A stretch of DNA of 64,000 nucleotides. It comes from a virus (lineage: Duplodnaviria > Heunggongvirae > Uroviricota > Caudoviricetes). Below the pieces are notes generated by a model. The model worked only from the letters and a program-made list of their open reading frames with translations, was not told where the DNA came from and did not search any database. The DNA lies in IMG/VR virus record IMGVR_UViG_3300042922_001018, one strand, 5' to 3'. Within the stretch, counting starts at the first letter, position 1. The number at the start of each line of letters is the position of its first letter. Below are positions 1,834 through 54,008 of the stretch, piece after piece. The position numbers and the translations under genes were made by a program.

Positions 1834-1842
1834 CCGCCTACA
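1834..1842 (+). promoter_or_regulatory. CCGCCTACA box, 7 nt before ATG
   Basis: ccgcctaca-ttcgggc-ATG(1850). Confidence 0.75.
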
Positions 1843-1849
1843 TTCGGGC

Positions 1850-2230
1850 ATGACATTCTCCGAGACTGAGGTCCGCCGAGACGCGGGCGGTAAGTTCGCC
1901 GAGAAGCTTGGCGCTTCGCCGGAGGTAACTCTTCCCCCGGCGCCGTTCGAGAGCTACGAGGTACGCGGTGTCAAGCCGGGTGACCTCGTGGACACTGAGA
2001 GCAACACGCACGACGGGCCTTTCGACTTCGCGTTCATGCACAACCGAGCTTTCCGCCAGGCATGGAAGTCTGCGGGGCGTCCGCGCCATCTTCGCGTTCT
2101 ACAGGCGGGCCGAGCGAAAGAGGACGGCCACACGGACAACGCCATCATTTTCGACCTCGGCGGGGAGCCGTTCGAGTTGACTTTCCATCGCGACCGCGAG
2201 ATGCTTGTTTCGCGCCCGAACAAGGAGTGA
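1850..2230 (+). CDS. Tagged-family protein
   Basis: MTFSETEVRRDAGGKFAEKLGASPEVTL. Confidence 0.85.
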   Translation: MTFSETEVRRDAGGKFAEKLGASPEVTLPPAPFESYEVRGVKPGDLVDTESNTHDGPFDFAFMHNRAFRQAWKSAGRPRHLRVLQAGRAKEDGHTDNAIIFDLGGEPFELTFHRDREMLVSRPNKE

Positions 2231-2233
2231 GCC

Positions 2234-3034
2234 ATGAGCTTCAACGAGTCTGAAATCAACCGCGCCACTGACGGCAAGTTCTCCGAGAAGGAGGGCACCC
2301 CGCCTGAGGACGGCTTCGCGAAAGAGCTGGCTGACACTCTCTGGTCCATCCGTGAGCGTGACGCCCGAGAAGGCGTCTGCGGCGTGGACTACGACCACAC
2401 CGAGACCACCACGTATGAGGACGACGAACTCGTTCAGTGGAAGTGCGAAGAGTGCGGTGCGGAGGGCGAAGTTGACCTCACCGAAGAGCCGGGCGACCTT
2501 CTGTCGGGCAAGACGATGGATGACCTGATGGGCCGCACCGCCGACGAGCCGGGCGCTCTGAACGGTTTCCGTCTGGACGACCTCATTATCTACGAAGACG
2601 GCGAAGACGGCGACGATGAGGACGACGACTTCGACATCACCCGCAAGTTCTCGTACCAGCGTTCCTACCCAGGTATGAGCGGCATCCCCGCAACTTCCAC
2701 CAAGCACTGCGCTGAGTGCGGGGACGAGATGCGGGTGAACGCCGAAGGAGTCTCGAACCACATCGCCGCCGACGGCGGCATCGACTACGACAAGGACGCT
2801 CAGCACGCAGCCATTGACGACGCCGCGTACGGCGACGCCGATGAGAGCAATGTGCTCTTCGTTACGGATGACGGGTTCGAGGTTCAGCGTGCCACCGACG
2901 AAGGCTCGTACGCGGTGTACGCGGCTGACGGCACGTTCCTCACGAACGTCACCAGCGCATCGGAGGACCACCTCAGCATCGAGGATGAAGTTCGAGAGCG
3001 TCTGGCAGAGCTGAAGGCCGCTAGCGGACAGTAA
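2234..3034 (+). CDS. Tagged-family protein, very acidic, CxxC motifs
   Basis: MSFNESEINRATDGKFSEKEGTPPE; SD aaggag; CEEC and CAEC; D/E runs. Confidence 0.85.
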   Translation: MSFNESEINRATDGKFSEKEGTPPEDGFAKELADTLWSIRERDAREGVCGVDYDHTETTTYEDDELVQWKCEECGAEGEVDLTEEPGDLLSGKTMDDLMGRTADEPGALNGFRLDDLIIYEDGEDGDDEDDDFDITRKFSYQRSYPGMSGIPATSTKHCAECGDEMRVNAEGVSNHIAADGGIDYDKDAQHAAIDDAAYGDADESNVLFVTDDGFEVQRATDEGSYAVYAADGTFLTNVTSASEDHLSIEDEVRERLAELKAASGQ

Positions 3035-3041
3035 CGCTGTA

Positions 3042-3050
3042 CCGCCTACA
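3042..3050 (+). promoter_or_regulatory. CCGCCTACA box
   Basis: ccgcctaca-gacggtc-ATG(3058). Confidence 0.75.
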
Positions 3051-3057
3051 GACGGTC

Positions 3058-3858
3058 ATGACATTCGCCGAATCTGAGCACCCGCGCGCCACCGACGGTA
3101 AGTTCGCTGAGAAGGTCGGCGCCGCGCCTTCCATCTCGCTGGACGTGAAGCCACCCATCACGGCGAAGGTCGTGCATCAGCAGTGGATTGGCGATTACGC
3201 GGTCGATACCGGCGAGGAGACGGAGTTCGACATCCGGGCGGTTCTCGACGCGGCGCCCCTGGAGGACATTCGCTCGATGGAAAGCTCTGGCGACCGGGAC
3301 TGGCTTCACTTCGATGCTGTCAACGCTGGCCTCATTGAACCCGCCGAAGGACCGTTCTACATCGACACGTTCGCTGCTGAAGAAGACCTCGAAGAGTACA
3401 TCGCGGCTCGCGAGGCGGCAGGCCAGGAAGACCCGGTAGCGGAGCTGGAGCCGTCTCAGAAGCTTGTCCGCGAACGCGTTGGCGCGGCACTCCAGGGCGC
3501 TCGCGGCGCTCTCCCGCTGTCCATCATCACCATGGACGGGAGCGAAGACGGAGACCTCAGCGCAAGCCGCACCGGGCATCTTGTTGCTGACGGCATCCTG
3601 CGGGCGCAGCACTCTTTGAACGCGCTCGCGGTGGACTCCGCACGTCTCGATGAGTCCGACCGTAAGCACCTGTCCGACATCGACCAGCTTCGTGACCTCA
3701 TCAGCTACGACCGTCTGAACCAGGCCACGGTGACCCCGGAGAGCCGACAGAAGGTTGTTCGTATCGTCGCTGGTCTGAACGACTACCTGTGGAACCGTGA
3801 AAACCACCTGTCTCAGCAGGACACGCTCGAATCTCAGCCCGCCGCATCTGTCGAGTGA
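3058..3858 (+). CDS. Tagged-family protein
   Basis: MTFAESEHPRATDGKFAEKVGAAPSISL. Confidence 0.85.
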   Translation: MTFAESEHPRATDGKFAEKVGAAPSISLDVKPPITAKVVHQQWIGDYAVDTGEETEFDIRAVLDAAPLEDIRSMESSGDRDWLHFDAVNAGLIEPAEGPFYIDTFAAEEDLEEYIAAREAAGQEDPVAELEPSQKLVRERVGAALQGARGALPLSIITMDGSEDGDLSASRTGHLVADGILRAQHSLNALAVDSARLDESDRKHLSDIDQLRDLISYDRLNQATVTPESRQKVVRIVAGLNDYLWNRENHLSQQDTLESQPAASVE

Positions 3859-3921
3859 CGACCTTGCTCGTGCAGAGGTAAGCACCCCGCGGAGGCCCGG
3901 CCGCTAGACTGAGGCCTGACC

Positions 3922-4353
3922 ATGACCTTTCTCGTTGACCTTCTCATGCCGAAGCGTCCGCCTCGCGGCGAGCGCGAACCCGGCCTGTCAACCATGGCCA
4001 TCGCCGAAGTCCCTTTCAAGCACGAAAGAAATCGTGACGCATTCGAGCCGTGGGCGCTGCGCCCCGTCATCCACACGCTCCACCCCGTCATCACTCATGT
4101 GACCGATGAGGGAGACCCGCACTGGGAGGTCTGGTTCGTCCACAACAACCGACCGGTTGTTCTCGCGGTCCCTTCTCCCGGCGTCGGGGAACTGTCGATG
4201 GATGACCTCACTGAGTACCTGTCGAAGTCGGTCTCCCATGAACGTCAGGGCACCGCCTCCGCGGATGAGCTGCGGGCTGCGCGTTTCGCCCGCCGCGTCC
4301 GCGAGATGGTGTGCCTGGAGACATGGCCAGAACCACAGCCGCCTACCATTTGA
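3922..4353 (+). CDS. Hypothetical protein (untagged)
   Basis: ORF fills the gap; TAGACT -10-like hexamer upstream. Confidence 0.6.
   Translation: MTFLVDLLMPKRPPRGEREPGLSTMAIAEVPFKHERNRDAFEPWALRPVIHTLHPVITHVTDEGDPHWEVWFVHNNRPVVLAVPSPGVGELSMDDLTEYLSKSVSHERQGTASADELRAARFARRVREMVCLETWPEPQPPTI
4339..4347 (+). promoter_or_regulatory. CCGCCTACC variant box
   Basis: ccgcctacc-atttgac-ATG(4355). Confidence 0.65.
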
Positions 4354-4354
4354 C

Positions 4355-5113
4355 ATGACCTTCGACCCGAATGACCACCCACGCTCGACAGACGGCACCT
4401 TCGCAGAGAAGGTCGGTTCGAGCGCGGAGGTGAAGCTCTCCGTTAGTGAGCTGGACCACGGGCTATTCGACGATGTGCGGACACAGGCTGGCGAAGCGTA
4501 CGAGACGTACGGTCGAGCGCTCGCTACCGAGCGTATCCAGCGCAAATACCCGACCGCTGTGCGCGCCACGGTCGCGGTAACCCAACACGATGAGGTCACG
4601 GTCTCTTCTATCGAAGATGCAGACGGCGTACTCCTCTGGGAGGCGAGCGAACTGAACGAAGGCGACGCTATCCACCACGCTGCCGCAAGCATCCCGGCCG
4701 ACGCTGTGCAGAACGGTTCGTACCTCGACCTCGGCGGAACACCTGACTCGCAGGAGGCGTTCACGCACTACCACCGCGCTGCAACTGAGACGCAGGCGGT
4801 CGCGGTGCAGGCGCTAGCGAACAGCATCCGTCTCCGCTTCCCCGAGGCGGTATCGGTGGAGATGGACGCGGACGACGCGGATGACGATGACCCGGACATC
4901 GAGCGCCGCCCGACCGCGGTGTTCAACGCTGCTGGCGAGAAGATGTGGACTTCAGGCTCGGGCGATGAGAGCATCTTCGCTCCCAACAGCCGCGACCGCG
5001 AGTACCTTCAGTACGCGAACTTCGAGTACGACGGTGACACGGATGCGATGGTCGTCCGCCTGCCTGTGAACCTTTTCGATGAGTCCACGTGGCCTGAGTC
5101 CACACCTTTCTGA
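4355..5113 (+). CDS. Tagged-family protein, acidic
   Basis: Internal ATG of ORF 4106..5113: MTFDPNDHPRSTDGTFAEKVGSSAEVKL. Confidence 0.85.
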   Translation: MTFDPNDHPRSTDGTFAEKVGSSAEVKLSVSELDHGLFDDVRTQAGEAYETYGRALATERIQRKYPTAVRATVAVTQHDEVTVSSIEDADGVLLWEASELNEGDAIHHAAASIPADAVQNGSYLDLGGTPDSQEAFTHYHRAATETQAVAVQALANSIRLRFPEAVSVEMDADDADDDDPDIERRPTAVFNAAGEKMWTSGSGDESIFAPNSRDREYLQYANFEYDGDTDAMVVRLPVNLFDESTWPESTPF

Positions 5114-5132
5114 ACCAAGGAGCAACACCAAC

Positions 5133-5954
5133 ATGACTTTCAGCGAGACCGATGTCGTACGCGACGCCGCGGGTAAGTTCTCGGAGAAGACCGGCTCGGC
5201 GCCGGACATCTCAGTGACCCCGCCCAAGAAGACATACATCTACCGCGTGGAAGGCGACGACCACGAGACCGAGGACGTAGAAGCATCCAGCGAGGAAGAG
5301 GCGCTGAACATCGCCGCAGAGCTGTTCGAGGAGCGCTACAGCGGTGACGAAGAAGATGATGACGATGACTCCGAACCGACGGATGTCCGTGACCTTCTGT
5401 TCGTGAAGGCGGTCTACGAAGGCGACATCAACGACTACGACGACGAGTGGACGAAGGTCACGCCGGGCAAGCACTTCCACGACCCGAACTACGAGCATGT
5501 CGCTGGACGATACGCGGGCTACGAGGTGAAGAACTACCGGAAGCTCCCCATCGGGATGGAAGGTGGCGCATTCACCGCGAGCATCTGGCGTGACGGCAAG
5601 CGTGTCATGCTTGTCGAGAACGCGGGCAACGGCGGCGCGAACACGTACACTGACCTGAGCAGCCCGAAGACCCCGCTTCGGCACCGTGGCGAAGAGATTG
5701 ACCGCTTCAAGAAAACCGCAAGCGCCATGTACGGCCCGGACAAGTACGAGAGCGATGATGCGCTCTTCGCGTTCGTGCAACTCGGTAGCGAGGTTGACCG
5801 CTTGGCCCGCATCAACGGTTGGTCGCGTACAGAGACCGCCGAAGCGATGGCAGAGGACTACGAGAAGCAGATGGCCGAGTTCGGAAGCAAGGCGGATGAA
5901 GTTGAACTCGCGGCGCTCCGCGACCCGTCCATCATCTCGCGCCTGACCGACTGA
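5133..5954 (+). CDS. Tagged-family protein, acidic
   Basis: MTFSETDVVRDAAGKFSEKTGSAPDISV; SD aaggag. Confidence 0.85.
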   Translation: MTFSETDVVRDAAGKFSEKTGSAPDISVTPPKKTYIYRVEGDDHETEDVEASSEEEALNIAAELFEERYSGDEEDDDDDSEPTDVRDLLFVKAVYEGDINDYDDEWTKVTPGKHFHDPNYEHVAGRYAGYEVKNYRKLPIGMEGGAFTASIWRDGKRVMLVENAGNGGANTYTDLSSPKTPLRHRGEEIDRFKKTASAMYGPDKYESDDALFAFVQLGSEVDRLARINGWSRTETAEAMAEDYEKQMAEFGSKADEVELAALRDPSIISRLTD

Positions 5955-5993
5955 TTTTCCACGACCTACCACGGCCAGTGGTAGACTCTTAGA

Positions 5994-6692
5994 GTGACCC
6001 GGAAAATCCTGACTGCCATCGGTGCGGTATTCGTGTTGTCTGGACTCGGTCTCCTCAGCTTCCTCGGCGTCGGGTTCTTCGCGGACCAGAGCGAGCTTGA
6101 CCAGAAACAGCAGGACACGCAGGCGCTCATCCAGGAATGGGACGGTGGTTCGGCTACCCGCGTTGACACCGCGCCGACTGGTGACATCCCCGTTACCACG
6201 CGGCCAGCTACCTACGACGAGTTCGGCGTTCTCTATGTCCCGCGATGGGGCGCAGACTATGTCGCGCCCATCCTCGAAGGCGACAAGACGAAGGAAGTCT
6301 CTTCGTGGCACGGTGTTGACCACTACCCGAGTTCGCAGATGCCGGGAGAGCTGGGCAACTTCGTCGTCACCGGCCACAACGGCCGGAACGAGACGGGGCG
6401 CTTCTCTCACCTGTCGCAGAGCGAAGTAGGCGACCTCGTCTATGTCGAAACCGCAGACGGTTGGTACACCTACAAGCTGACTTCGTTCGAGACCATCGAC
6501 CCGTCCGAGAACGAAGTGCTTCTCCCCGTCCCTCGTGAGGAAGGCGTCGCGCCTACGAAGAGCGTCATCACGCTCATTTCCTGCACGCGCGAATGGTGGG
6601 GAACCACCGGGCGTTACGTTGCCTACGGCGACTTCGTAGAGTTCACCCCGCGCGCGGCGGGCGCCCCTGCCGATGTAACGGCGATGCGTTGA
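5994..6692 (+). CDS. Sortase (class E-like)
   Basis: N-terminal TM; HYPSSQMPGELGNFVVTGH; TLISC and downstream Arg catalytic pattern. Confidence 0.9.
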   Translation: MTRKILTAIGAVFVLSGLGLLSFLGVGFFADQSELDQKQQDTQALIQEWDGGSATRVDTAPTGDIPVTTRPATYDEFGVLYVPRWGADYVAPILEGDKTKEVSSWHGVDHYPSSQMPGELGNFVVTGHNGRNETGRFSHLSQSEVGDLVYVETADGWYTYKLTSFETIDPSENEVLLPVPREEGVAPTKSVITLISCTREWWGTTGRYVAYGDFVEFTPRAAGAPADVTAMR

Positions 6693-6820
6693 CCGCTCCT
6701 GCGCGCTGGAACTACCGGCGAAGTAGTTAACCAGACACAGCACCATTCCGTCTTGCCACTGTCAAGATAGGGCGCTCGTACTTGTCCGCCAAACGGATGA
6801 CACCGTGTATACTGATGTAC

Positions 6821-9800
6821 ATGCTGCGAAAGTCATCTATCGCCCTCGGGGCCACTCTCACTCTTGTCGGTTCAATGATTGCACTGCCGGGCGTTGCCCT
6901 CGCAGCGCCGGGAGACGCCGTCTCCATCCCTGATACAAGCCTCCGCGAAGCCGTCAAGGCCGCGGTCGGCCACCAGCCTGACAACCTCGCCGACCCCACC
7001 GAGGGGGAGATGGCGTCCATCACCAACCTGAACCTGAGCGGTCGGAACGTCACCGACCTCACGGGTATCCAGTACGCGACGGCCCTCACCTCGCTCAACC
7101 TCTCCGGCAATGCGGTCACGGACATTACGCCGCTGACGACGTTGACGGGTCTGGTCACCTTGGACCTCTCGCTCACGCCGGTCACCACCATCGAGCCGCT
7201 CGCGGGCAAGACCGCTCTCGCCTCACTCGACCTGACCGCGACCAACTCCAACGAGACCGCCGCGGAGACGACCTTCTCGACCCTCACCGGTCTGGAGTTC
7301 CTCGACCTGTCCAGCACTGACCTCACCGAGGAGGCTGCCGCAGCGACCAGCGTCATCGAACTCATCATCGACGACAACCTCGCCACGAACCTGGACGGGT
7401 ACGAGGCGCTCACCAACCTGCGTGCGCTGTACGCAGACAACAACCCCTTCGAGAACCTCGACGGTCTGAAGGGCAAGAACCTCGACTACCTCGGGGCTGG
7501 CGTTACCCAGGTGCGTGACCTTTCCGGCATCACCGCCCAGAACGGTCGCGTGCTCACCGAGGTTCCGCTCTCTGCGGGCGTCGGCGAAGATGTGGACCTC
7601 ACGGTGACTGGCGTCGGAACCACAGGCCAGGTCGAGCTGTCCGTCGCCGCTGGCACCTACGACCCGGACGAGCAGACCGTCTCCTACCCGGCTGCGGGCG
7701 CGTTCCAGGCATCCTGGAACCAGCTTTCGGGTGAGTCCTTCCAGTTCACCGGCAACCTCAACATCGAGGTTGCCGCGACCGCCCCTTCGGGTGTTACGGA
7801 CTTCGATGTCTCTGGCCGCATCGCATCGGCCAACCTCAACTGGGCGCTTCCGAACACCAACGGCCTCGGCGACATCGACGAGTACACCATCGTGCTCTCC
7901 AACGATGGTTTCGTCACTTCCACCCAGGTCTCGGCACCGGGCGACGCAACGTCTCTCGTCATTCCGGACCTCGAAGGCGGCAACTACACCGCGCGCATCA
8001 CGTACACGACGACCGAAGGCGCGCTCTCCCCTGAGTCCACCGCCGCATTCACGGTCTACGCCGAGCCTTTCCCCGTTCCGGGCAATGTCGATGCCTCCTA
8101 CATCGAGGCGAGCGATTCGATTGGCTTCCGGTGGACCGGCGGTGCGCCCAGCTACATCCTGACGGTCACGGATGACATGGGTGAGACGACCGAGTTCACG
8201 GTCAACGACACCAGCATCACTATCCCTGCTTCCGAGTTCGCTGACCCGGCACGCCTGACATTCACCGTCGAAGCCGGTGACGACCAGGGGTCGCTCGGCG
8301 CCGTTTCTACCCCGACTGTCATCAACACGGAGACTGGCTACGTCGGCCCCGTGACTGTCGGCGCGGCTGTCACCAACGTCGTAGCTGGCGAGATGGACGC
8401 AGAGCGCATGGCCGTCCCGGTCAGCTTCGATGTCCCGGAGGGCACGCAGAACGTCCGCTACACCTACGACGGCGGCGCAGGCATCGGCCTTGTGACGGCG
8501 TTCGAGACGCTGGAAGCTGGCCCCAACACCATCTACATTCCGGTTCGGTCGGGCCAGGAGTACAGCGTCGTCATCGCCGCTCGCACCGAGAGCAGCGACT
8601 ATGTGGCCGCTCCCGCTGTTGAGTTCGAGGCTCCAGAACTCGGTTCTGTAACGGGCCTCGTCGGTACTCTCGGTGACGGCAACGTCACGCTGAACTGGAA
8701 CCCGGTCGCGGGCGCCGCAAGCTACGAGGTCACTGTGATTCTCGAAACGACACAGACCCCGGTCTTCATCCCGGTAGACGGAACGACCGCAACACTGACC
8801 TTCAGTGACTTCCCTGCGAACAACGAGCAGTACGAAATCGGTGTCCGCGCGGTGGACGCGAACGGCGGCAAGGGTCTCTTCTCCACTATCCTCGAAGTGA
8901 ACCCCGGCGCCGAGTACGTCGGCCCGAGCAACGGGATGCTCCCGGCGCCCACCAACCTCGCCAGCACCTACAACGCGGCAGACAACACGTTCACCTTCAC
9001 GTGGACGGGTGACGCGGCGGCTGACCGTTACATCCTCTCGATGAACGGCATGGATTACCTGGCGGACGAGCCGACTCTGACAGTTTCGGCCGGTGCCGCG
9101 GGTACCGAGTACGATGTCATCGTCTACCAGCGGGCTATCGGCGGGCAGTACGGCCCCGGTACCTCCATCGACGTGGTGACCCCGGATGACGGCCCTGTCG
9201 TTCCGAGTGAACTGAGCGGTGTCGTCGTGGACGGCGATGTCGTCGCTAGCTGGCCCGCAATCCCCGGCGCTGTCAGCTACGAAGTCGGTATCGGCGACCT
9301 CGACCGGAACTCGGGTGACCTCGTTCCCGTGGACGGCACTTCCGTCACTGTCCCGGACGGCGCTACGCGTACGTTCATCCTGACGGTGGCTGGTCTCAAC
9401 GCCGACGGCGAGCAGGTCCAGGGTACGAGCTACCAGGGCATCTGGAACGCTGGCGGGACCGAGTTCCTCGAACTGACCCCGCCGCCCGCAGGCATCGAGG
9501 TCGGCACTGTCACCGCCACTGACGAAGCGGTGACGGTCGATTGGGAAGCCATCGACGCCGACTTCTACCGCGTGATGGCGACCAACGGTACTGAGACCCT
9601 CGTCTCGCCGGTCCTGACCGGAGACGTGTCCTCCTACGCCTTCGACCGCGCAGCGTTCGCTCCTGGTTCGACCTGGACCTTCACGGTGACCGCGCGTGAC
9701 GCATCCTCCGTGTGGTCCGCGCCTGCCGGTGCTGAACTCGCCTTCCCCGCTGATGGCGGTTCGGGCGACGGCGGCTCCGGCGATGGTTCTGGTGACGGTG

Positions 9801-9994: not shown

Positions 9995-10008
9995 CACAAG
10001 CCCAACCG

Positions 10009-10045
10009 CACTGACCGCCCCGGCTATTTGTCGGGGCGGTCAGTG
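10009..10045 (+). terminator. Stem-loop terminator
   Basis: cactgaccgccccg / cggggcggtcagtg inverted repeat after stop. Confidence 0.8.
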
Positions 10046-10087
10046 TTCGTTCAGCATCCCGAAAACCCCTGATAGACTGAAGCAGAA

Positions 10088-13090: not shown

Positions 13091-13099
13091 TGTAGGCGG
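13091..13099 (-). promoter_or_regulatory. CCGCCTACA box
   Basis: Minus strand ccgcctaca-tgcgggc-ATG(13083). Confidence 0.75.
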
Positions 13100-14231: not shown

Positions 14232-15005
14232 ATGACTGACTACGCGAAGGTGTACGGGTACGACCCGCACACGTCCAGCAAGGTAATGCCTGTCGCGCTG
14301 GCATCCATCATCGTTGCGGTTATCAGTCTGTGCGTAACCGCTGTCGCGTTCGCCAATGCGGAGGCTGTTGGTGCGCTCACCGCCCCCATCGCCGTCACCG
14401 CGTTCGTATTCGCATTGCAGGCTGACAACATCGACCCCATCGGCCGAACCCTGGCGTACCGCATCCCGCTCCGATACCGCGAAGTCGTGCGGAAGGGATA
14501 CAACTACGGGTGGCGAGACCACTTCAAAACGAGTCCGCGCGCTGCCGTGTTCGCGAAGTCGATGATTGTCGCCGACCACGCTGAGTTCACCATCAACAGC
14601 GAGAAGACAGGTGGAGGCGGGAGGACGAGCGCTGCTGGCGTACGGTTCTGGGGCTTCTTCCACGACGACAACGAGCGAGAACTCAACCCGTTCTTCGCAT
14701 CCTGGAAGGCAGCTCGCTCCCTTGACGCGGACGAAATCCCCTGGGACGAGATGCCGAAGCTCTTGGCGTTCGCTGCCGACGCGAGTCGCTTTATCGCTTC
14801 CCGTGACCCCGAGGATGCTCGGACCCTCACGGAAATCACTCTTGCATGGCACAAGTCGGGAATGTCCGCAGAAGACGCTCTCGGCATCATCGACCGCTAC
14901 CCTCTCGCACTGGCAAAGATGCTTCTCGCGGGTGTTCCTCTAGAGTACGCTATGACGCTCACGGACACCGTCCCTGGGGTAACCGGCATCGACAACCTAT
15001 GGTAG
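14232..15005 (+). CDS. GxPxEY-tail family protein with N-terminal TM segments
   Basis: SD ggagg; LAGVPLEYAMTL near the C-terminus. Confidence 0.7.
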   Translation: MTDYAKVYGYDPHTSSKVMPVALASIIVAVISLCVTAVAFANAEAVGALTAPIAVTAFVFALQADNIDPIGRTLAYRIPLRYREVVRKGYNYGWRDHFKTSPRAAVFAKSMIVADHAEFTINSEKTGGGGRTSAAGVRFWGFFHDDNERELNPFFASWKAARSLDADEIPWDEMPKLLAFAADASRFIASRDPEDARTLTEITLAWHKSGMSAEDALGIIDRYPLALAKMLLAGVPLEYAMTLTDTVPGVTGIDNLW

Positions 15006-15014
15006 GCTAGTACA

Positions 15015-21759: not shown

Positions 21760-21768
21760 TGTAGGCGG
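21760..21768 (-). promoter_or_regulatory. CCGCCTACA box
   Basis: Minus strand ccgcctaca-ctccggc-ATG(21752). Confidence 0.75.
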
Positions 21769-22903: not shown

Positions 22904-22963
22904 CCTTCGACCCTATCAGATTTGACGAGCGAAGGGAAGGGGTAACGCTGGTAGACTAGGCCC

Positions 22964-23458: not shown

Positions 23459-23467
23459 CCGCCTACA
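23459..23467 (+). promoter_or_regulatory. CCGCCTACA box
   Basis: ccgcctaca-gccaggc-ATG(23475). Confidence 0.75.
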
Positions 23468-24264: not shown

Positions 24265-24273
24265 CCGCCTACA
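24265..24273 (+). promoter_or_regulatory. CCGCCTACA box
   Basis: ccgcctaca-ttcgggc-ATG(24281). Confidence 0.75.
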
Positions 24274-24929: not shown

Positions 24930-24938
24930 CCGCCTACA
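24930..24938 (+). promoter_or_regulatory. CCGCCTACA box
   Basis: ccgcctaca-tccgggc-ATG(24946). Confidence 0.75.
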
Positions 24939-29274: not shown

Positions 29275-29283
29275 TGTAGGCGG
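29275..29283 (-). promoter_or_regulatory. CCGCCTACA box
   Basis: Minus strand ccgcctaca-tctgggc-ATG(29267). Confidence 0.75.
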
Positions 29284-30027: not shown

Positions 30028-30469
30028 GCCCGGATGTAGGCGGGTTCCGAGACACGCGAACGGCGAAAAGGATACCGAGGACCGTGCCCATCAGAGGCAA
30101 CGTTCCTACGATGAGAATGACAAGATGCGGAAAGAACTCGAAGCTGGAGGAGTCATAGTACGGGCTGCCTTGTCCTACGACAACATACGAGTAGAGCGCC
30201 GCAGTCGCAGTGTTCACGCCGAGGTAGGACAGGACGCCAGACCAGCCTAGTTTTAACGACGGGTACAGGAACAGTCCCGCGAATACGGTCTCAGCGACAA
30301 TACCGTAAAGTAGGACGTTGCCAAAGCCGACCCAGATATCTTCAGGTAGACCTTGGGTAGCTGTACCCGCAGTGCCATTGCCAAGCCAGTATGCGTTAGC
30401 GATAACGGATGCAGCCGCCGCCGATACGGCAAACACCACGCTGGACAGGAAGAGAACGAGAAACTTCAT
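30002..30469 (-). CDS. Membrane protein (tandem paralog)
   Basis: MKFLVLFLSS; ANAYWL and SGVLSYLGVN shared with neighbour. Confidence 0.65.
   Translation of the reverse strand: MKFLVLFLSSVVFAVSAAAASVIANAYWLGNGTAGTATQGLPEDIWVGFGNVLLYGIVAETVFAGLFLYPSLKLGWSGVLSYLGVNTATAALYSYVVVGQGSPYYDSSSFEFFPHLVILIVGTLPLMGTVLGILFAVRVSRNPPTSGHDIQRDRA
30035..30043 (-). promoter_or_regulatory. CCGCCTACA box
   Basis: Minus strand ccgcctaca-tccgggc-ATG(30027); lies inside the 3' end of the upstream membrane gene. Confidence 0.75.
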
Positions 30470-37339: not shown

Positions 37340-37435
37340 CGTGACAGTCTACCCCAAAGAAAAGACCCGCACTCACGTGGAGTACGGGTCGGTATTCTCA
37401 GCCTACCATAGGGCGAAGTGTGGTAAACTACGGCC

Positions 37436-41618: not shown

Positions 41619-42259
41619 TCGCTACCATACACGATGAAGTCGTAGTCGTCACCAACGAAGTCGGAGAATGCAGAGTTCTGCTCGCTGAGAGCCTTGTAGA
41701 ACGCATCCCCGCGCTGCGTGTCTTCCTCTTCTACACCGTACTCAGTGAACTCGGACATCTCGCGGATGTAGCTGGCCTTGTCGTAGTCCTCGACGCTGTG
41801 CGCGTCCGACGCGCTGGACTGAAGAATCTGCGCGATGGTTGGCGCCTCAGTCAGGGCGGAACCCATGTGGTACTCGATGTTGAACTCACGGCCGTCATCG
41901 GTGCGCAGCGTAACGTCGTAGTTGTGGGTGTCTCGACCAGATGCTTCGCCGGAAGCGTTAGCGGACTGGCCGAAGCCCTGGTAGTTCGCGGTGGCTGTGA
42001 CGCCTTCGGCTTCTACCCATCGAAGGATGCGCTCCGTCTCCTCATCATCGGCGCGGCCGTATCCGAGTGGGAACTCTTCTTCCTCTACGAGCGACGCGAC
42101 GGCAGGCGAATCGGGATTCCCACGGAAACCGACGATGTCGCCGGACAGCGTCGAGTCGGCGATGAAGTTCTCCAGCTCGACCTCGGGAGGCCAGCCTTCC
42201 TTCTTCTCGAACTTCCCGTCATTGGCGCGCGGGTGAAGGTCATCTCGGAAGTCAGTCAT
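41615..42259 (-). CDS. Tagged-family protein, acidic
   Basis: MTDFRDDLHPRANDGKFEKKEGWPPEVEL. Confidence 0.85.
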   Translation of the reverse strand: MTDFRDDLHPRANDGKFEKKEGWPPEVELENFIADSTLSGDIVGFRGNPDSPAVASLVEEEEFPLGYGRADDEETERILRWVEAEGVTATANYQGFGQSANASGEASGRDTHNYDVTLRTDDGREFNIEYHMGSALTEAPTIAQILQSSASDAHSVEDYDKASYIREMSEFTEYGVEEEDTQRGDAFYKALSEQNSAFSDFVGDDYDFIVYGSE

Positions 42260-42266: not shown

Positions 42267-42275
42267 TGTAGGCGG
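42267..42275 (-). promoter_or_regulatory. CCGCCTACA box
   Basis: Minus strand ccgcctaca-tctcggc-ATG(42259). Confidence 0.75.
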
Positions 42276-46102: not shown

Positions 46103-46112
46103 GCTGGTAGCT

Positions 46113-46427: not shown

Positions 46428-46465
46428 ACGCGCGCGTCCCTCGAATGATGCAGTAGACTGCAAGC

Positions 46466-46789: not shown

Positions 46790-46814
46790 ACTGGGAGGCA
46801 ACCGAAAGGCACGG

Positions 46815-47324: not shown

Positions 47325-47644
47325 CCTACCCTTCCATGGTGCGGGAAACGCCGACTACAGGTCGTATCGTCCTGTTCGTCATCTCCCTCATACTTGCGGT
47401 CATCCCGTGGGCTTTCTGGTTCATCACCGGGCTAGCCACGGGCGGCATCTTCGTGCTCAGCATCATGTTCCTCTGTGGCTTCCTCCTCGTGGGAGGGCTG
47501 CTCGCCTGGTTCATAGTCATGGCGGTACGGAGCGGGTATCGCTACAAATGGTCCATCTGGATTATCGTCGTTGGCTTCGTCCTACCCGCGCTGGCGACAG
47601 GCGCACTGGTTCTCCTCATCGCCCTGGCGTTCGCGGCCTGGTAA
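47321..47644 (+). CDS. Small membrane protein, paralog of upstream gene
   Basis: TGRI...AV...RY.WSI shared; GTGA coupling. Confidence 0.65.
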   Translation: MTYPSMVRETPTTGRIVLFVISLILAVIPWAFWFITGLATGGIFVLSIMFLCGFLLVGGLLAWFIVMAVRSGYRYKWSIWIIVVGFVLPALATGALVLLIALAFAAW

Positions 47645-47653
47645 GCTGAGCAG

Positions 47654-48046
47654 ATGGAAGAAGAGTCCGTTGCTGACGCTCCACACCCTCGTACTGGCGG
47701 CACGCCTGTAAGTGACGAGCTGAACAGCCGCCTCAACGCTCCACTCGCACGCCGACTCGTATGGGGCGGTGCCGTAGGCGGCTCCATCTGGTTCTGGTGG
47801 TACGCCATCAGGGCCATCTTCGGTTACTCCTTCCTCGCAAGCCTCTCCCCTGACCTCGCCCCCGCGATGGTATTCGCGCTCATTGTGGGCGCCATCGGGG
47901 TCGCGAGTGCCGTCTTCATCCTCATCGCCGGATACCGCAAGAACCTGTCTGTCGGCTACTCCCTCTTGTACTTCGCGGTCGCCGCTGTGACATGGCTCAT
48001 CATTGCCTACGGCACCGACCACATCGTGATGTCGCTGCTCGGTTGA
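47654..48046 (+). CDS. Small membrane protein
   Basis: 3 TM. Confidence 0.6.
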   Translation: MEEESVADAPHPRTGGTPVSDELNSRLNAPLARRLVWGGAVGGSIWFWWYAIRAIFGYSFLASLSPDLAPAMVFALIVGAIGVASAVFILIAGYRKNLSVGYSLLYFAVAAVTWLIIAYGTDHIVMSLLG

Positions 48047-48056
48047 CAACTCGGCG

Positions 48057-48761
48057 GTGAACGCCTACGCTGATGGCATGCGTCAGGCGCTCACCTACCA
48101 GCTTCTTCAGTACCGGCCGTCCTCCGGTGACCTGGCGAGCATCGACGCAGCGCGCCACCCCGGCGTCGCCCAGTGGGTTCGAGACAGCTACGAAGACCGG
48201 ACTACCGCCCAGAGCATCCGTTGGCTTCGCGGCTACCGACGCTTCGGTGACGTGTTCGAGCGTGCTACCCAGCTCGACCCGCACGACCCGGCTGTGAAGC
48301 TCGCCGACCCCTGGTATCTCGCGGGACTGCGCGAAGAGGATTTCACCCCCGCGACGCGTTCATTCCTGCACTCGATGTACGAGCGGGACATGGGTTCCCA
48401 AGGCCTCTCCCTCTTCATCTCTGCATTCGCGAAGCTCGGGAACCTGCCGGATAACTTCCAGGAACAGATGCGGTGGGCCGGTGGACGGTACATCGTCCCC
48501 AAGTCCTTCTGGGGTAGCTGGGTCAATGGACTGCTCGGCGAGTATGCGAGCACGTGGACTCCGGAGAACATCGACGAACTGATGACGGCTGGTGTTCGTC
48601 GCCGTGAGATGGATAAGGCGCTCGCGGCGGTCTACGGTGTGTCGGTGGATGTGACGCGGAACATCCATGAACAGGTTCTCCCCGATGTTCCGTATTCGGT
48701 CGTCAAGGCAGTGGTGCTAGATGAAGTGCCTGTAGAGTACGTCCGTGCCACGTTGACGTGA
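48057..48761 (+). CDS. GxPxEY-tail family, RHP/GYxRFGD subfamily
   Basis: IDAARHP...GYRRFGDVFE...LADPW; ends EVPVEYVRATLT. Confidence 0.75.
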   Translation: MNAYADGMRQALTYQLLQYRPSSGDLASIDAARHPGVAQWVRDSYEDRTTAQSIRWLRGYRRFGDVFERATQLDPHDPAVKLADPWYLAGLREEDFTPATRSFLHSMYERDMGSQGLSLFISAFAKLGNLPDNFQEQMRWAGGRYIVPKSFWGSWVNGLLGEYASTWTPENIDELMTAGVRRREMDKALAAVYGVSVDVTRNIHEQVLPDVPYSVVKAVVLDEVPVEYVRATLT

Positions 48762-48797
48762 CTCCTCACGCACGTCAACGTGTGCTACTCTGAGGTC

Positions 48798-49325
48798 GTG
48801 TCCGAGAACAATGTGCAAGCTGATGACAGTGAGTTCATCACGCTGCGCAGAAGCGAATGGTCTGCGTACCAGGCGTACGTGAAGGGCATCGAACGCCGTG
48901 TCCAGGATTACGAAGCGGACGAACTGCGTCGCGAGGAGTACAACCGCGAACGTTCAGTTGAAGAAGCTGCGCAGAAGAAGCGACTGTCGAGGACACGCGG
49001 TGTCATGACCCGCATCACGGCGCTGTACCTCGGCGGCTGGGTGTTCTTCGCACTCGGCGCCGGGTCGCTTCTTCTGTTCGGTCTCAGCGCTCTCCCTGGG
49101 GCTATCGACCGTATCTCTGGCGGTGACGTTCTCGGATGGGCGACGGTGGCAGTCCTCGGCGCAGTCCTCGTTCTGCTCCTGATGGTCGCCGGGTACCAAC
49201 GCATCCGTCGGCCGCTAGCAGTATTCGCGGTCGGGCTGCTCGGGCCATTGTTGGTGTGGGGACTCGTGTACCTGGGCAGCACCGCAGGCATCGTCACTAT
49301 CCTGCCGATGGCGCCACCGGTCTAG
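48798..49325 (+). CDS. Membrane protein with N-terminal coiled coil
   Basis: TACTCT-N6-GTG; 3 TM. Confidence 0.65.
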   Translation: MSENNVQADDSEFITLRRSEWSAYQAYVKGIERRVQDYEADELRREEYNRERSVEEAAQKKRLSRTRGVMTRITALYLGGWVFFALGAGSLLLFGLSALPGAIDRISGGDVLGWATVAVLGAVLVLLLMVAGYQRIRRPLAVFAVGLLGPLLVWGLVYLGSTAGIVTILPMAPPV

Positions 49326-49357
49326 CGGTCCTCTGAAACATGGGGTAGGATGAGGGC

Positions 49358-50284
49358 ATGAACACGCTCACCAGCTCCCACGGTTTCCCCGTCCCGCAGG
49401 CGAACAACCTCTCCCGCATCGGTGATGTCGCCCTCTACGTCAACGCGGGTCTCACGACCGCCGCTGACATCGGCGCGGCCTTCCCGCAGAACCGCTCGAA
49501 GGCGCCGGAGAACTCTTCCCGCGACGGGCTGTACTACCTCGACGCCGCAGGGTACCTCGGCCTCGTGACCCGTGAGCGTGACGGCCGCGTGATGTCGTTC
49601 GAGCTGACCGAGTCCGGCAAGCGCTTCGTCGCACTCGACAGCAACGGCCGGGAAGCGTACCTGCGGGCTATCGCCATCGCGACCCCGCTCATGCAGGCGT
49701 ACGCTTACGCGAAGGGCAAGGGGCTGTTCGAGCTTCTCGTCGCTGAGGGCATGGGTGAGCAGACCGCCCGCCGCCGCGTCTCCACCGCGTACGCCTGGGA
49801 CAAGGCGCTCGGCGCGCCGACGAAGGGCTACAAGAACCTGCCGACCTCAGTCCGGAAGGGCGACAAGGAGCCGAAGCAGAAGGACCGCCCGATTCTCGGT
49901 GTTCCCTACGAGGACCGAGGGAACTTCGCCATCGCAGAGCTGAACGACTATCTCACGGTTCGCGGCTACGAGACCCGTTCGGGCAAGACCCGCGAAGGCA
50001 ACTTCGACCTCGGATGGCAGCGTGGCAGCGACACCGTCATCGTCAACCACGCCGAGACCGGCGCCCGTGGTCACCGTGACCGCATCCGGTACGCGGACGG
50101 TCGCATTGCGGAGCACCGCCGCTACCTGGAGAAGGCCGGTATCCGCAACGTCCACGCCATCATCCTGACCTCCGACACGCTCGAAGATGCGGACCTTCTC
50201 CTGAACTCGCGGTACGACGACGAGAAGACCCTCGTCGTGAACATCGACGACCTGAGCGCGCTCCAGCGCCGCGGCCTCGTCTGA
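49358..50284 (+). CDS. Winged-helix protein with possible degenerate restriction-endonuclease-like C-terminal domain
   Basis: PQAN...RDGLYYLDAAGYLGLV...LT..G...RRVST; later FDLGW...VIV. Confidence 0.55.
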   Translation: MNTLTSSHGFPVPQANNLSRIGDVALYVNAGLTTAADIGAAFPQNRSKAPENSSRDGLYYLDAAGYLGLVTRERDGRVMSFELTESGKRFVALDSNGREAYLRAIAIATPLMQAYAYAKGKGLFELLVAEGMGEQTARRRVSTAYAWDKALGAPTKGYKNLPTSVRKGDKEPKQKDRPILGVPYEDRGNFAIAELNDYLTVRGYETRSGKTREGNFDLGWQRGSDTVIVNHAETGARGHRDRIRYADGRIAEHRRYLEKAGIRNVHAIILTSDTLEDADLLLNSRYDDEKTLVVNIDDLSALQRRGLV

Positions 50285-50312
50285 ACTCATCGTCCGGTAG
50301 AATCGGCGGTGA

Positions 50313-50362
50313 CGTAGAGCTGCCCGCCCCACTGTTCATCCTCGGGGGCGGGCAGCTCTACG
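50313..50362 (+). terminator. Stem-loop terminator
   Basis: cgtagagctgcccgcccc / ggggcgggcagctctacg followed by atttt. Confidence 0.85.
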
Positions 50363-50410
50363 ATTTTCGAGCGGGGACAACGCCACGAAAAACGTGCTAC
50401 ACTCGTGCGC

Positions 50411-50857
50411 ATGGAAGACATCGAGCAGCTTGACGCCATGTTTCAGAATGAGCAGCAGGCGGCTGTTGCGGTAGACCCTCCCCGGCCTCGGGACTTGCTC
50501 GCCGGTTACACACCGCGGACGAAGCCCGGCAATGTCATCTGGTTCTTCATCGCGCTTCTCATCTCGACCGTGCTGTGGAGTTTCACCTGGACGCCGGTCC
50601 TGAACTTCATCGCAATCTGGAATGACCCGCCCGAGGGCGTAGACGGGTACAGTGTCCTTGCCCCGACAACCATCGTCTACCTCGGCGCGTGTCTGCTGCT
50701 CTCGACCATTGCGGGAGCTGCGGCTTTCGCCAACCGCTTCCGGCCGACGTTCACATGGCCGGTGCTCGTTCTCGCCATCTCAGCGTGCTTCTTCACCGCC
50801 ACGATGGAGATGTCCACCGGGAAAGCGCTGCTTGACCTGCTGCCGTTCCCCGTCTAA
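50411..50857 (+). CDS. Membrane protein
   Basis: TACACT-N7-ATG; 3 TM. Confidence 0.65.
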   Translation: MEDIEQLDAMFQNEQQAAVAVDPPRPRDLLAGYTPRTKPGNVIWFFIALLISTVLWSFTWTPVLNFIAIWNDPPEGVDGYSVLAPTTIVYLGACLLLSTIAGAAAFANRFRPTFTWPVLVLAISACFFTATMEMSTGKALLDLLPFPV

Positions 50858-51699
50858 GACAGGACGGCAAGGAACTCGCGCGCTGGTTTAGCCTCGAACC
50901 CATCGGCTGTCGCCTTGCGTCGCCCGGCCGTATACGTTACATCGAAATAGTGGAACGTCGCGCGGTCGCCAAGCAGCTTTTCGAAGAACTCATCGCCCTC
51001 AACCACGCGGTTCGCAAGAAGAACAGTCGCACCCTGGTCGGCGTACCCGAGAGCTTCCTGAACCAGAGAGCGCTGAGCGTCGTCATCGAACCCGGTGCCG
51101 TATGTCGTGAACGAGCCACGGTAAGGCGGGTCTAGATAGATGAGCGAGCCTTCGCGCTTGTACTCCATCTCGCGGTAGTCGCCTGATGTGATGCTGGCGC
51201 CGCGCAGGGCAACCGACCACTGACGGACCAAGTCCGTCTTCACGACCTGCTCCATCTTCGTATGGTTCAGCAGCCCAGCGGGTGTCCCGAACAGGCCGCG
51301 CGAATCGGCGCACGTCTGCCAGATGCCATTGAAGCCGAGGCGCATCAGCACGAACAGCGTCGCGTCGTCCGGGTCAGCCCAATAGATTGAGCGCAGCGCG
51401 TAGTAGAACGCTTTCCGCTCATCCTTCGACGGAAGTTCCAGGTACGGGATGACCAAAGATTCCACGCGGTCGAGGAAACCGTCCACGTCGTCGCGCACAG
51501 CAGCGAGCACGCTCATCAGCTCAGCGTTGATGTCGTTCAGGTGAGCGGGGAGCACGACGGTTCCTTGAAGCCAGCCGAACACGGCGCCGCCGCCGAAGAA
51601 AGGTTCCACGTACCTCTGGAAAGGGCCGGAAGGCCACACATCAGAGTATCGAGCGAGCAAGCGGCTCTTGCCACCCGCCCACATGTAGAAAGGCTTCAC
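50854..51699 (-). CDS. Dam-family (D12 class) DNA adenine methyltransferase
   Basis: WAGGK, EPFFGGGAV, NDIN, FNG, YLDPPY; GTG coupled to the upstream stop. Confidence 0.92.
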   Translation of the reverse strand: MKPFYMWAGGKSRLLARYSDVWPSGPFQRYVEPFFGGGAVFGWLQGTVVLPAHLNDINAELMSVLAAVRDDVDGFLDRVESLVIPYLELPSKDERKAFYYALRSIYWADPDDATLFVLMRLGFNGIWQTCADSRGLFGTPAGLLNHTKMEQVVKTDLVRQWSVALRGASITSGDYREMEYKREGSLIYLDPPYRGSFTTYGTGFDDDAQRSLVQEALGYADQGATVLLANRVVEGDEFFEKLLGDRATFHYFDVTYTAGRRKATADGFEAKPAREFLAVLS

Positions 51700-52277
51700 G
51701 CAGCCCATCCTGCCAGGGCCAGATTCAGTTCGATGATGCGGGGGATGTCGGCTTCAGCTTCTTCGAGCGTCCGCCACCGGTAGAGACCGAGGACTCCTTC
51801 ATCGGAGTCCCACACGTCCCGCTTCTCCGGTTCGAAGATGGCGACAGCGGTTCCCAGAGTTCGCTCAGCGGAGCGGCCGTCGAAGAACCCGTCACCGAGA
51901 CAGAAGGTCACGTAGCGTTTCACCCCAAGGCGCTGGGAGATGGCGAAGTTCTTGTACCAGCGCTCGATAGCGTTGCCGCGCTCGCCCTGGAACTTGCATT
52001 CAACAGCTACGAGCGGCTGTCGCTTCCGGTCCACGAAGATACCGCCGTCAGGCCTGAACCCCGCGATACGGGAAGCGTCGTCGAGACTGGTCTGCAAGGC
52101 GACGCGTAGGTCATTGGCTGAGAGACCCTTCACCCATCGGGTTGAAGAAGGGATGCTCTGGATGTACTCACGGGTCAGCGTGTCGAGCTGCCGCGAGCTA
52201 AGATTCCCCGCGGTAGAGCCTAGCTGGATGCCTCCGCGGAATCCATCCTGCCGTTGCCGGGCGGGGGTTTCCGTCAT
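51696..52277 (-). CDS. EcoRI-like PD-(D/E)XK restriction endonuclease
   Basis: PDGG...VECKFQG...GNAIERWYKN mirrors EcoRI PDGG...EAKHQG...GNAIERSHKN. Confidence 0.75.
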   Translation of the reverse strand: MTETPARQRQDGFRGGIQLGSTAGNLSSRQLDTLTREYIQSIPSSTRWVKGLSANDLRVALQTSLDDASRIAGFRPDGGIFVDRKRQPLVAVECKFQGERGNAIERWYKNFAISQRLGVKRYVTFCLGDGFFDGRSAERTLGTAVAIFEPEKRDVWDSDEGVLGLYRWRTLEEAEADIPRIIELNLALAGWAA

Positions 52278-52379
52278 TCTGAAAGGCTATCATGCGTTTC
52301 TCAGGACGGCGGTGGTGCTACGTGTCCGGGCGTCTGTAGCGGTATCACCGTACCGTAGAGCACCCTGTACTATCGAAGT

Positions 52380-53453
52380 ATGGCGGACCGGGACGGCTGC
52401 GGAGAAACCGCAGCGAAGCGACATCACATCGTTCCCCAAACGTATCTGAAGAACTTCGGGCTGTCTAAGGGTGACCGGCCATCCAAGCATGTCTCCTATG
52501 ACAAAAAACAGGAAGAGTATCTCCGGAATCAGTCGAGCGTCAATATCGCGGTCATCAAAGACTTCAATAAATCTGTAACGCATCCAGGAGCGCCATCAGA
52601 GTTTGAGAGTTGGCTATGCGGGCAAGAAGGTCTACTTTCAAGTCGTTTCCGCGCTCACCCCGCGACGCTGCACCGAGATTGGCTGTGCAGGGCTGCGGCA
52701 CTCCAGCATATTCGTTCCCAGCAAGCAAGAGATGGAATAAATCAGGCTTTCGAGACCACTCTAGAGGAATGGTCTATACCAGGGGTGGTATCAATACAGA
52801 GGCGAGCAGATAAAGTCGCTATGCACTATTACGCCGTCAGGCTCGGACTGACTAAATACGCCGGTCTCCTAGCTCAGCGACGTATCTACTCCGTCGAGAA
52901 TCCCTACCATAATCTCATCACTTCTGACTCCCCCGTGGCGCAGGTCGGACCCGGCGGCGGGCTGATTGGAGCGACGCGCGTGGTGTTCCCCTGGAACCGA
53001 ACCACCGCGATAGTCTTCGGTCCGCCTTGCAAGCATCTAGCGGACCTATTCCGCGAAACACGCATCTTCTCCTGCCCATGTAGCGAAGCTACGTATATTC
53101 GACATGGGGGAAGGGACGAACGATTCACGGTGGACACTGCGCTAATGGCAGATATCAACAGACTGACGTATTCGAATGCACAACGATTCGTCTATGGACA
53201 CCCAAGTGACGAGAGTCTGATTCAGCAGTCGAGTCCTAGTGTCCTCGGCCCCATTCCGCCCTTCGGGAGAAGGCAACCCGAAAGCCCGATTCTCTCGGGC
53301 GTCCGAGTATTCGACTCGTCTGTTGCCTTCTCAGACGAGTCGAACGTTGAACAGGCAGTCGCCAGAGCTAAGGAAGAAGCCCAACGAGCTACACCTCCTT
53401 GGCGACGCCTGACTGAGCTAGAACTAGTAAGATTCTCGGCTCATCGACCCTGA
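52380..53453 (+). CDS. DUF4238 family protein
   Basis: HHIVPQTYLKNF and ITSDSPV; visibly more AT-rich than flanks. Confidence 0.75.
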   Translation: MADRDGCGETAAKRHHIVPQTYLKNFGLSKGDRPSKHVSYDKKQEEYLRNQSSVNIAVIKDFNKSVTHPGAPSEFESWLCGQEGLLSSRFRAHPATLHRDWLCRAAALQHIRSQQARDGINQAFETTLEEWSIPGVVSIQRRADKVAMHYYAVRLGLTKYAGLLAQRRIYSVENPYHNLITSDSPVAQVGPGGGLIGATRVVFPWNRTTAIVFGPPCKHLADLFRETRIFSCPCSEATYIRHGGRDERFTVDTALMADINRLTYSNAQRFVYGHPSDESLIQQSSPSVLGPIPPFGRRQPESPILSGVRVFDSSVAFSDESNVEQAVARAKEEAQRATPPWRRLTELELVRFSAHRP

Positions 53454-53494
53454 GCGCGCGTTCTTTCATAACCTCGGGTCGAGACTATGAAGTC

Positions 53495-53992
53495 TTACCA
53501 GCGGGTGACTGTTGCTGTGTCCCGCTCTGAAGCTGTGATGTGGCCCATCTTGAAGCTAAGGTCAGCAGTGTCTCGAATCGTGGAAGCCATTTCGCTCGCG
53601 CTGTGGCCGAACGACTCGATACGGTTTTCACGAACTTCGTCTGTCTGCATACCTGCGTACGCCGCAGCGAGTGCTTCCTCCGGCTTGCGGCCTCTCCATG
53701 ACCACTTCTTCGGCTCTTCGCCGTAGCTCACCTCGAAGTTGCGGAACCCAGACCGTCGAGCGATAAGCGTCAAGCCGTCCGGCCCATCGACGCTCCACGT
53801 GCGCTTACCGTTTTCATCACGGCCCTGCGAGGGGTTCAGTTCCGGAGTCGGCTCCACGATACGAGCACCGAGGCCCGCGATTTCCGGGTGCTCGGCATCG
53901 AACTCCGCAAGTGAAATCTCCGGACGCGAGCCACGCTTTTCAGAGAAACGACCGATAGTGTCGCGGTCTACCGCGAGTTCGTCGAAAGACAT
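53495..53992 (-). CDS. Tagged-family protein
   Basis: MSFDELAVDRDTIGRFSEKRGSRPEISL. Confidence 0.85.
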   Translation of the reverse strand: MSFDELAVDRDTIGRFSEKRGSRPEISLAEFDAEHPEIAGLGARIVEPTPELNPSQGRDENGKRTWSVDGPDGLTLIARRSGFRNFEVSYGEEPKKWSWRGRKPEEALAAAYAGMQTDEVRENRIESFGHSASEMASTIRDTADLSFKMGHITASERDTATVTRW

Positions 53993-53999
53993 GCCCAGT

Positions 54000-54008
54000 T
54001 GTAGGCGG
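54000..54008 (-). promoter_or_regulatory. CCGCCTACA box
   Basis: Minus strand ccgcctaca-actgggc-ATG(53992). Confidence 0.75.

Follow-up and report, generated by a model that had tools for sequence, protein, structure and literature searches.

Why should genes whose products resemble one another only in a short N-terminal peptide begin at one fixed distance from the same nine bases? The question is raised by a stretch of 64,000 nucleotides catalogued as IMG/VR virus record IMGVR_UViG_3300042922_001018 (the window, by which we mean this whole stretch). A first-pass annotation had described there a set of genes encoding a common peptide, here called the tag, and before many of them a private promoter-like box. 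The window has a G+C content of 62%, and three soil-metagenome DNA runs may be its source. The element it comes from is predicted to be giant, plasmid-like, of conjugative type and from a soil actinobacterium, with VirB4-like and FtsK-like genes. We consider it probable that the box is a -10-type promoter without a -35, specific to this element, from which the tagged genes would be expressed as leaderless mRNAs.

The box follows the pattern CCGCCTAC(A/C), written CCGCCTACM, nine bases whose full form is CCGCCTACA. We found 14 exact matches in the 64-kb window against 0.76 expected (standard deviation 0.77) from dinucleotide-preserving shuffles, of which 0/100 reached 14. All sites were extracted with their flanks, and in 12 of the 14 the box is followed by a spacer of exactly 7 nt and then by the ATG that opens a tagged protein; every one of the 12 sites listed in the first-pass annotation was recovered in this form. 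The tag has the consensus MTFxExxHPRxxDGKFxEK, or in the longer form written per site M(T/S)F(N/D/S)E..(HP)R..(D)G(K/R)F.EK.G..PE. The tagged proteins are alike only over their first ~28 residues and match no Pfam family. A relaxed scan of the window, allowing at most 2 mismatches and any spacer from 5 to 9 nt, with ATG, GTG or TTG as the start, gave no further credible gene.

On the plus strand, CCGCCTACA is located at 1834..1842 before ATG 1850 (product of 126 aa) and at 3042..3050 before ATG 3058 (266 aa), and the variant box CCGCCTACC at 4339..4347 before ATG 4355 (252 aa). The other plus-strand boxes are at 23459..23467 (ATG 23475, 262 aa), 24265..24273 (ATG 24281, 208 aa) and 24930..24938 (ATG 24946, 350 aa). 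On the minus strand they are at 13091..13099 (ATG 13083, 254 aa), 21760..21768 (ATG 21752, 157 aa), 29275..29283 (ATG 29267, 343 aa), 30035..30043 (ATG 30027, 236 aa), 42267..42275 (ATG 42259, 214 aa) and 54000..54008 (ATG 53992, 165 aa).

Positions -16 to -8 are invariant over the 12 sites, save for one A>C at site 4339, and no conservation was found upstream of -16. In the spacer, G-3 and C-1 occur in 12/12 and G-2 in 10/12, the other positions being variable. No Shine-Dalgarno (SD) sequence was found in any of the 7-nt spacers, and all 12 starts are ATG. There is also no -35: information content is ~0 from -70 to -18 over 59 sites of the window family and 56 sites of a related Curtobacterium plasmid, pS16, and at -42 to -24 we found no conserved position, no enriched 4-mer and no GGAAC-like -35 with a 16-17 nt spacer as in promoters of extracytoplasmic function (ECF) sigma factors. 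The earlier description of these genes, without SD, without a shared -35 and with a spacer usually ending in GGC, was thus accurate. Transcription starts usually show a pyrimidine-purine preference, which the C-1/A+1 of the boxed genes fits.

From this anatomy we infer that CCGCCTACA and the conserved G-3 and C-1 would make up a promoter core consisting of a single -10-type element, with no -35. RNA polymerase (RNAP) would begin at the A of the start codon, 7 nt further downstream, and give a leaderless mRNA for each boxed tagged gene, and the tagged genes without a box would share the transcript of a boxed gene and use an SD for translation.

A different origin might be considered first. In 12 genes the box adjoins the tag, and their proteins are alike only in the first ~28 residues, so the box could be a functionless 5' flank copied together with a tag cassette in duplication or recombination of tagged genes. 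We regard this as very improbable. The third-codon (synonymous) positions of the tag-coding DNA vary freely over the 12 window sites, and because the box is invariant while spacer, upstream flank and these synonymous positions have diverged, it appears to be under purifying selection of its own rather than recently copied.

The association with tagged genes is specific. Box-N7 precedes 12 of the 19 tagged genes of the window and none of its 62 untagged ones (Fisher p 7e-10), the untagged set being the ~62 genes of a crude gene call based on G+C by codon position. The tagged genes without a box, at 357, 1289/1313, 2234, 5133, 41618(-) and 41013(-), had been described as sitting directly downstream of another tagged gene; indeed each of them abuts an upstream tagged gene, and each starts with an SD or a stop/start overlap. 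The last two belong to a three-gene tagged unit opened by the boxed gene at 42259. Since the box-less tagged genes would be co-transcribed with boxed ones, the box-defined regulon would coincide with the peptide tag. In gene 1289-1822 the tag (FDPSQHGRSSSGRFTEKTGSLPEVEL) begins ~20 codons past GTG 1289, which overlaps the upstream stop, and the true start of this gene may be the SD-preceded GTG at 1313.

Two further boxes of the window were said to precede SD-led genes of the tagged family. One is an exact copy at 60272..60280 (+), separated by 22 nt from ATG 60303; the other, CCGCCTACT at 61634..61642 (+), is followed after 31 nt by the tagged gene at 61674 (363 aa). Both genes are SD-led as claimed, but the box at 61634 has one mismatch, and the translated product of gene 60303-61127 (274 aa) carries a tag-like peptide at its C-terminus (...DRRTNGQFDYRRGSYPEVRLR; DRRTNGQFDYRRGSYPEVRL). 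Box and tag are here at opposite ends of one gene, which shows that the box is separable from tag-coding DNA and also speaks against a copied flank. Leadered copies of this kind, with a leader of 20-50 nt and a canonical SD, were found at 60272 and 61634, at three sites in metagenomic relatives (L121:70, L132:12482 and L133:12513) and at three sites on pS16, and they show that the box is separable from the start codon as well. The base 8 nt past the box, the predicted +1, is a purine in 5/5 leadered copies upstream of tagged genes in the window and its relatives and in 3/3 on pS16.

The remaining exact copy, at 63741..63749 (+), is absent from the list of the first-pass annotation. It falls in coding DNA, within the 3' end of gene 63193-63816, and ATG 63828 follows 78 nt later. 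Most likely it is either a product of chance, ~0.76 such copies being expected, or a weak internal promoter. It is conserved in the relative L132, but inside coding sequence there too. The box is asymmetric, and all 15 copies of the window (14 exact and the one-mismatch copy at 61634) are co-oriented with the downstream gene.

The untagged genes of the same element give a reference for where a promoter of a leaderless mRNA should stand. We found TANNNT-N6-ATG/GTG at 30 of the ~62 untagged window genes and the N7 spacing at 8 more, the chance expectation for TANNNT at a fixed place being 0.7%. The consensus of these starts is TGGTAGACT-N6-ATG/GTG (tGGTAgrCT), with G-14 and G-13 each in 22/30 and no SD; examples are at 5976-5993, 14997-15014, 22946-22963, 37418-37435, 46448-46465, 55720-55737(-) and 61135-61152. 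TANNNT-N6 was found at no tagged gene of the window. In Corynebacterium glutamicum, TAnnnT accompanies 97% of the mapped starts, and leaderless mRNAs, with AUG or GUG starts only, make up 33% (PMC3890552). Judged from their sequence, the untagged starts have the ordinary actinobacterial sigma-A leaderless layout, and most genes of the element are predicted to be made as sigma-A-type leaderless mRNAs, a share far above the ~33% of C. glutamicum. By contrast pS16 is mostly SD-led, with 252 SD against 21 TANNNT starts from the same crude caller.

The box occupies the -10 place of the other leaderless genes of the element, but at tagged genes only, which agrees with the first-pass view that its spacing is that of a -10 element of a leaderless mRNA. 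With the sigma-A leaderless promoters of Actinomycetota (PMC3890552) it has in common a -10-type element at a fixed short distance from the start, no SD, a weak or absent -35 and the restriction of that class to AUG/GUG starts. It differs from them in its sequence (CCGCCTACA), in standing 1 nt nearer the ATG, in the invariant CCGCC of its upstream part, in G-3/C-1 downstream and in being found at tagged genes only.

Considering the position of the boxes relative to neighbouring genes, a signal acting in RNA has to be weighed. Ten of the 12 window boxes follow a same-strand gene, in gaps of 1-65 nt (438 nt in one case), and most (10/12) begin 0-15 nt past the stop codon of the same-strand upstream gene; on pS16 38/46 boxes follow a same-strand gene shortly past its stop codon, with typical gaps of 17-35 nt. 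This placement, the strictly fixed distance from box to AUG and the lack of an SD at boxed genes would all suit a signal in polycistronic transcripts, serving SD-independent ribosome recruitment, re-initiation or a processing cut before the AUG. We think such a signal unlikely as the explanation of the box. The upstream neighbour is divergent for 2/12 window boxes (13091 and 21760, the latter in a 54-nt divergent intergenic region with no TANNNT upstream on the same strand) and for 8/46 boxes on pS16, and a boxed gene so placed has to have a promoter to itself. The leadered copies are followed by an ordinary SD, which makes a ribosome-recruiting signal unnecessary. The box resembles the anti-SD (CCUCC) in what we take to be the 3' end of 16S rRNA, and not its complement. 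The fold around the box is neither conserved nor stable (mean z +0.45).

In relatives of the element the box is kept where its surroundings are not. A metagenome scan with a stringent pattern gave 24 loci, ~170 kb in total, which are 75-85% identical to the window at the nucleotide level where syntenic. Of their 57 box copies, 46 have N7-ATG followed by the tag (18 of these 46 lie outside the search seed), 2 have N7-ATG without a tag and 9 have other arrangements, several being leadered before tagged genes and one having N8. To pair orthologs, we compared the protein bodies without their tags. Of 14 orthologs of boxed window genes, 13 retain the exact box at N7, a figure that is partly biased because some sites were search seeds, at least 4 being unseeded; the flank from -100 to -17 is only ~55% identical, which is again not what a passively copied flank would leave. 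The box is kept for gene 3058 in L128 and L133, for gene 24946 in L137 and L138, for gene 29267 in L138 and L139 and for gene 30027 in L139, and the C variant of site 4339 recurs at N7 in the L128 ortholog. The fourteenth ortholog (L133:12513-12590 against window 4339-4357) has kept the rare CCGCCTACC and gained a leader of ~50 nt with an SD, so that this pair is, as far as its sequence tells, a natural leaderless/leadered swap on one predicted promoter.

An N8 box at L128:4147-4166 and L133:6958-6977 heads an LRV/HEAT-repeat protein (MTTSPIPLSGIQPRDAG...), just past a 427-aa open reading frame (ORF) adjoining the VirB4-like gene; the N-terminus of this protein may be a divergent tag. Viral contigs gave no match to the stringent box pattern. 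With a looser pattern of 14 specified bases, genome contigs gave unrelated single matches, and among the matches listed none was followed by a tag.

A tblastn search with one tag led to plasmid pS16 (546 kb; NZ_CP126255.1) of Curtobacterium sp. MCSS17_016. It shares its backbone with the window family, amino acid identity being 44% for the VirB4-like ATPase, 43-47% for the FtsK-like ATPase, 37% for the helicase, 47% for DnaE, 53% for NAPRTase and ~35% for several tagged-protein bodies. At its tagged genes pS16 has, in the same place, a variant box, CCGCNCACA-N8-ATG, or gCCGC(G/A/C)CACA, with GG(C/T) at -3 to -1. We counted 48 copies of this variant with N8-ATG against 1 in the reversed control, and 56 when GTG starts (8/56) are included; nearly all of the N8 copies head tag-like N-termini, of several subtypes. 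Altogether 88 copies of the variant box occur on pS16, and the 32 that are not at N8 from a start are in line with a background of 24; three of these 32 are leadered, each having an SD, and their predicted +1 is a G. Plasmid pCPAA3 of Curtobacterium pusillum AA3 (567 kb), which has this backbone too, contains 46 copies of the Curtobacterium variant against 0 in controls, and the box of the window is not enriched there. A different and equally invariant box at the same position is a further point against a flank copied with the tag.

Microbacteriaceae were taken as the host family, judging from these plasmid relatives. In 401 Microbacteriaceae genomes the window form, box-N7-ATG, occurs at most once per genome and 27 times in total, below the reversed control, and the stringent form of the Curtobacterium variant was found once in 121 Microbacteriaceae genomes. 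At or below chance in these genomes, the box is no motif of the assumed host. The tie between box and tagged genes that the first-pass annotation had proposed is supported.

The repeated and oriented box also recalls an operator, that is, a site for an element-encoded DNA-binding regulator which would switch the tagged set off or on over ordinary promoters, like the oriented 'stoperators' of Cluster A mycobacteriophages (L5). The box is asymmetric, co-oriented with its genes, located at gene starts and many times repeated, pS16 encodes several helix-turn-helix (HTH) regulators, and such a role would be compatible with the box being a promoter too. Nothing else at these sites is conserved, however, that could act as the promoter, and the pS16 variant is without any TA, so that a sigma-A -10 cannot hide under it. 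A distance to +1 held to the single base is also more easily explained by start-site selection than by the placement of a repressor. The chance that the box is an operator of this kind seems to us small.

The reader of the promoter-like box is the next question. The sigma-A hexamer TAnnnT was not found in either form of it: the window box gives TACAnn, with T at position 6 in 4/12, and the pS16 variant gives CACAnn, with no TA. Because the final T of TANNNT is unconserved, the Curtobacterium variant has no TA and the untagged genes keep a perfect TANNNT, the reader is probably not the housekeeping sigma. That the box of a distant lineage of plasmids differs in its sequence as well as in its spacing leads to the same view. 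We therefore infer that the box is probably read by RNAP with a specificity factor other than the housekeeping sigma, whether encoded by the element or by the host.

Several observations weigh against reading the box as a promoter of this kind. Pfam scans found no sigma or RNAP family among the genes of the window, and for the relatives none is in a list that gives 25 of the 46 families of 108 ORFs. The sole Sigma70_r2 match of pS16 is a FliA-like gene inside a flagellar cluster. A reader from the host lineage is as possible as an element-encoded one, since both Curtobacterium plasmids share one variant. Taken as TACAnn, the hexamer ends 5 nt before the ATG and not 6, and the discriminator is GC-rich. 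At the 10 of 12 window boxes that come after same-strand genes, read-through transcripts together with an RNA-level signal could still do the work ascribed to a promoter.

No RNAP beta-prime domain was found on pS16, and neither pS16 nor the window nor the loci of the relatives contain LGREPT, a motif of sigma region 3. Several candidates for the reader were rejected. The region-4-like matches of pS16 are LuxR or Xre-type HTH regulators without a homolog in the window or the relatives, and the 427-aa ORF adjoining the VirB4-like gene, considered as a sigma factor, has no Pfam match at E<=1. A Sigma-28/FliA promoter (-35 TAAA, -10 GCCGATAA) is like the pS16 box only in the GCCG with which the latter starts; the box has no -35, and GCCGATAA occurs in 1 copy on pS16. 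The flagellar cluster itself, at pS16 351611-364000, is a full set of flagellar genes with its own FliA-like sigma factor, and in its behaviour pS16 is nearer to a chromid than to the metagenomic element.

Among known systems, the first-pass annotation had compared the box with T4 late promoters and proposed that an element-encoded sigma factor or RNAP co-expresses the tagged genes in one, perhaps late, stage. In T4 late promoters an AT-rich TATAAATA box is recognised by gp55, which acts together with gp33 and the gp45 clamp. The comparison holds in that both have one compact -10-type box without a -35 and a dedicated regulon on a mobile genome. The proposed reader and the late stage are putative. 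Neither a gp55-like nor another sigma factor nor an RNAP was found among the window genes; the box here is GC-rich and fused to the start codon, and the element is a conjugative-type plasmid. The hrp box of HrpL is a private bipartite (-35 and -10) ECF-sigma promoter paired with the N-terminal secretion signal of type III effectors. It resembles the present system in that a private promoter and an N-terminal peptide signal occur together on otherwise unrelated proteins, and differs in that the box here has no -35, the hrp reader is an identified ECF sigma factor and export of the tagged proteins is only putative. The Bacillus subtilis plasmid pBS32 reportedly encodes a sigma factor, SigN (ZpdN), so that it too is a large plasmid on which some of the genes have a promoter class to themselves, and there the reader is known.

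The start-associated sequences (SAS) of Cluster K mycobacteriophages, GGGATAGGAGCCC, lie 3-7 bp before start codons and contain the SD core AGGAG; because this core is at the ribosome-binding position, they were proposed to act in translation (PMC3203893). Like the box they are an asymmetric repeat in one orientation by the start codons of a gene subset, nearly absent from host genomes and with a preference for ATG. The box, unlike SAS, contains no SD or purine run, stands at -16 to -8 and also occurs 20-50 nt upstream of an ordinary SD. We found no paper on the box, on the pairing of promoter and tag or on the promoters of these Curtobacterium megaplasmids, and a literature search with the box string gave unrelated primers only.

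We might tentatively speculate that giant conjugative plasmids of Actinomycetota have an unrecognised specificity factor, undetectable as a member of the sigma-70 family, that steers host RNAP to a GC-rich, start-fused box without a -35. Dozens of tagged proteins destined for the recipient would then be made leaderless in one burst, as a conjugative counterpart of HrpL and type III secretion, with box and reader co-evolving between lineages. This larger picture is doubtful, and we hold it with much less confidence than the promoter function itself.

The other genes of the window include those for a DnaE-type polymerase, an FtsK/TrwB-like ATPase, a DEAD-family helicase, NAPRTase, a sortase, NucS, an RNA ligase, a D12 methyltransferase and an LRR/fn3 surface protein, and no tRNA genes were found in it. 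The DnaE-type polymerase (55824-60266, 1480 aa) has its PHP domain spread over residues 5-260 compared with a profile of 164 positions, which suggests that this domain holds an insertion; the phage collection gave no near match to this gene. The protein encoded at 54058-55719(-), of 553 aa, combines four DUF4379 treble-clef zinc fingers with weak matches to an REase_MTES_1575 nuclease and a Mom-like domain, and its gene is headed by a predicted sigma-A-type leaderless promoter. G+C content dips to 57% at 52001-54000 (vs ~62%), around the ORF at 52380-53453 (357 aa) and the tagged gene 53495-53992, and this segment may be a recent insertion. Pfam matches of untagged genes (55 ORFs scanned) included Acb1 anti-CBASS (weak), 2'-5' RNA ligase/LigT, RNA ligase, cREC_REC, NucS and Bax1-I, so judged by these domains the untagged cargo looks like one with a flavour of counter-defence and RNA repair.

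The variant box occurs ~50 times on each of pS16 and pCPAA3, plasmids of two cultured, non-clinical Curtobacterium strains, so that bench tests of the promoter, of what reads it and of where the tagged proteins go are directly feasible. If the box is a private promoter, a rule of one line (box-N7/8-ATG) would list the complete set of tagged proteins of a family of very large actinobacterial plasmids. This set would be controlled apart from the many housekeeping-type leaderless genes of the element, and transcription, leaderless translation and a candidate protein-addressing tag would be joined in one module.

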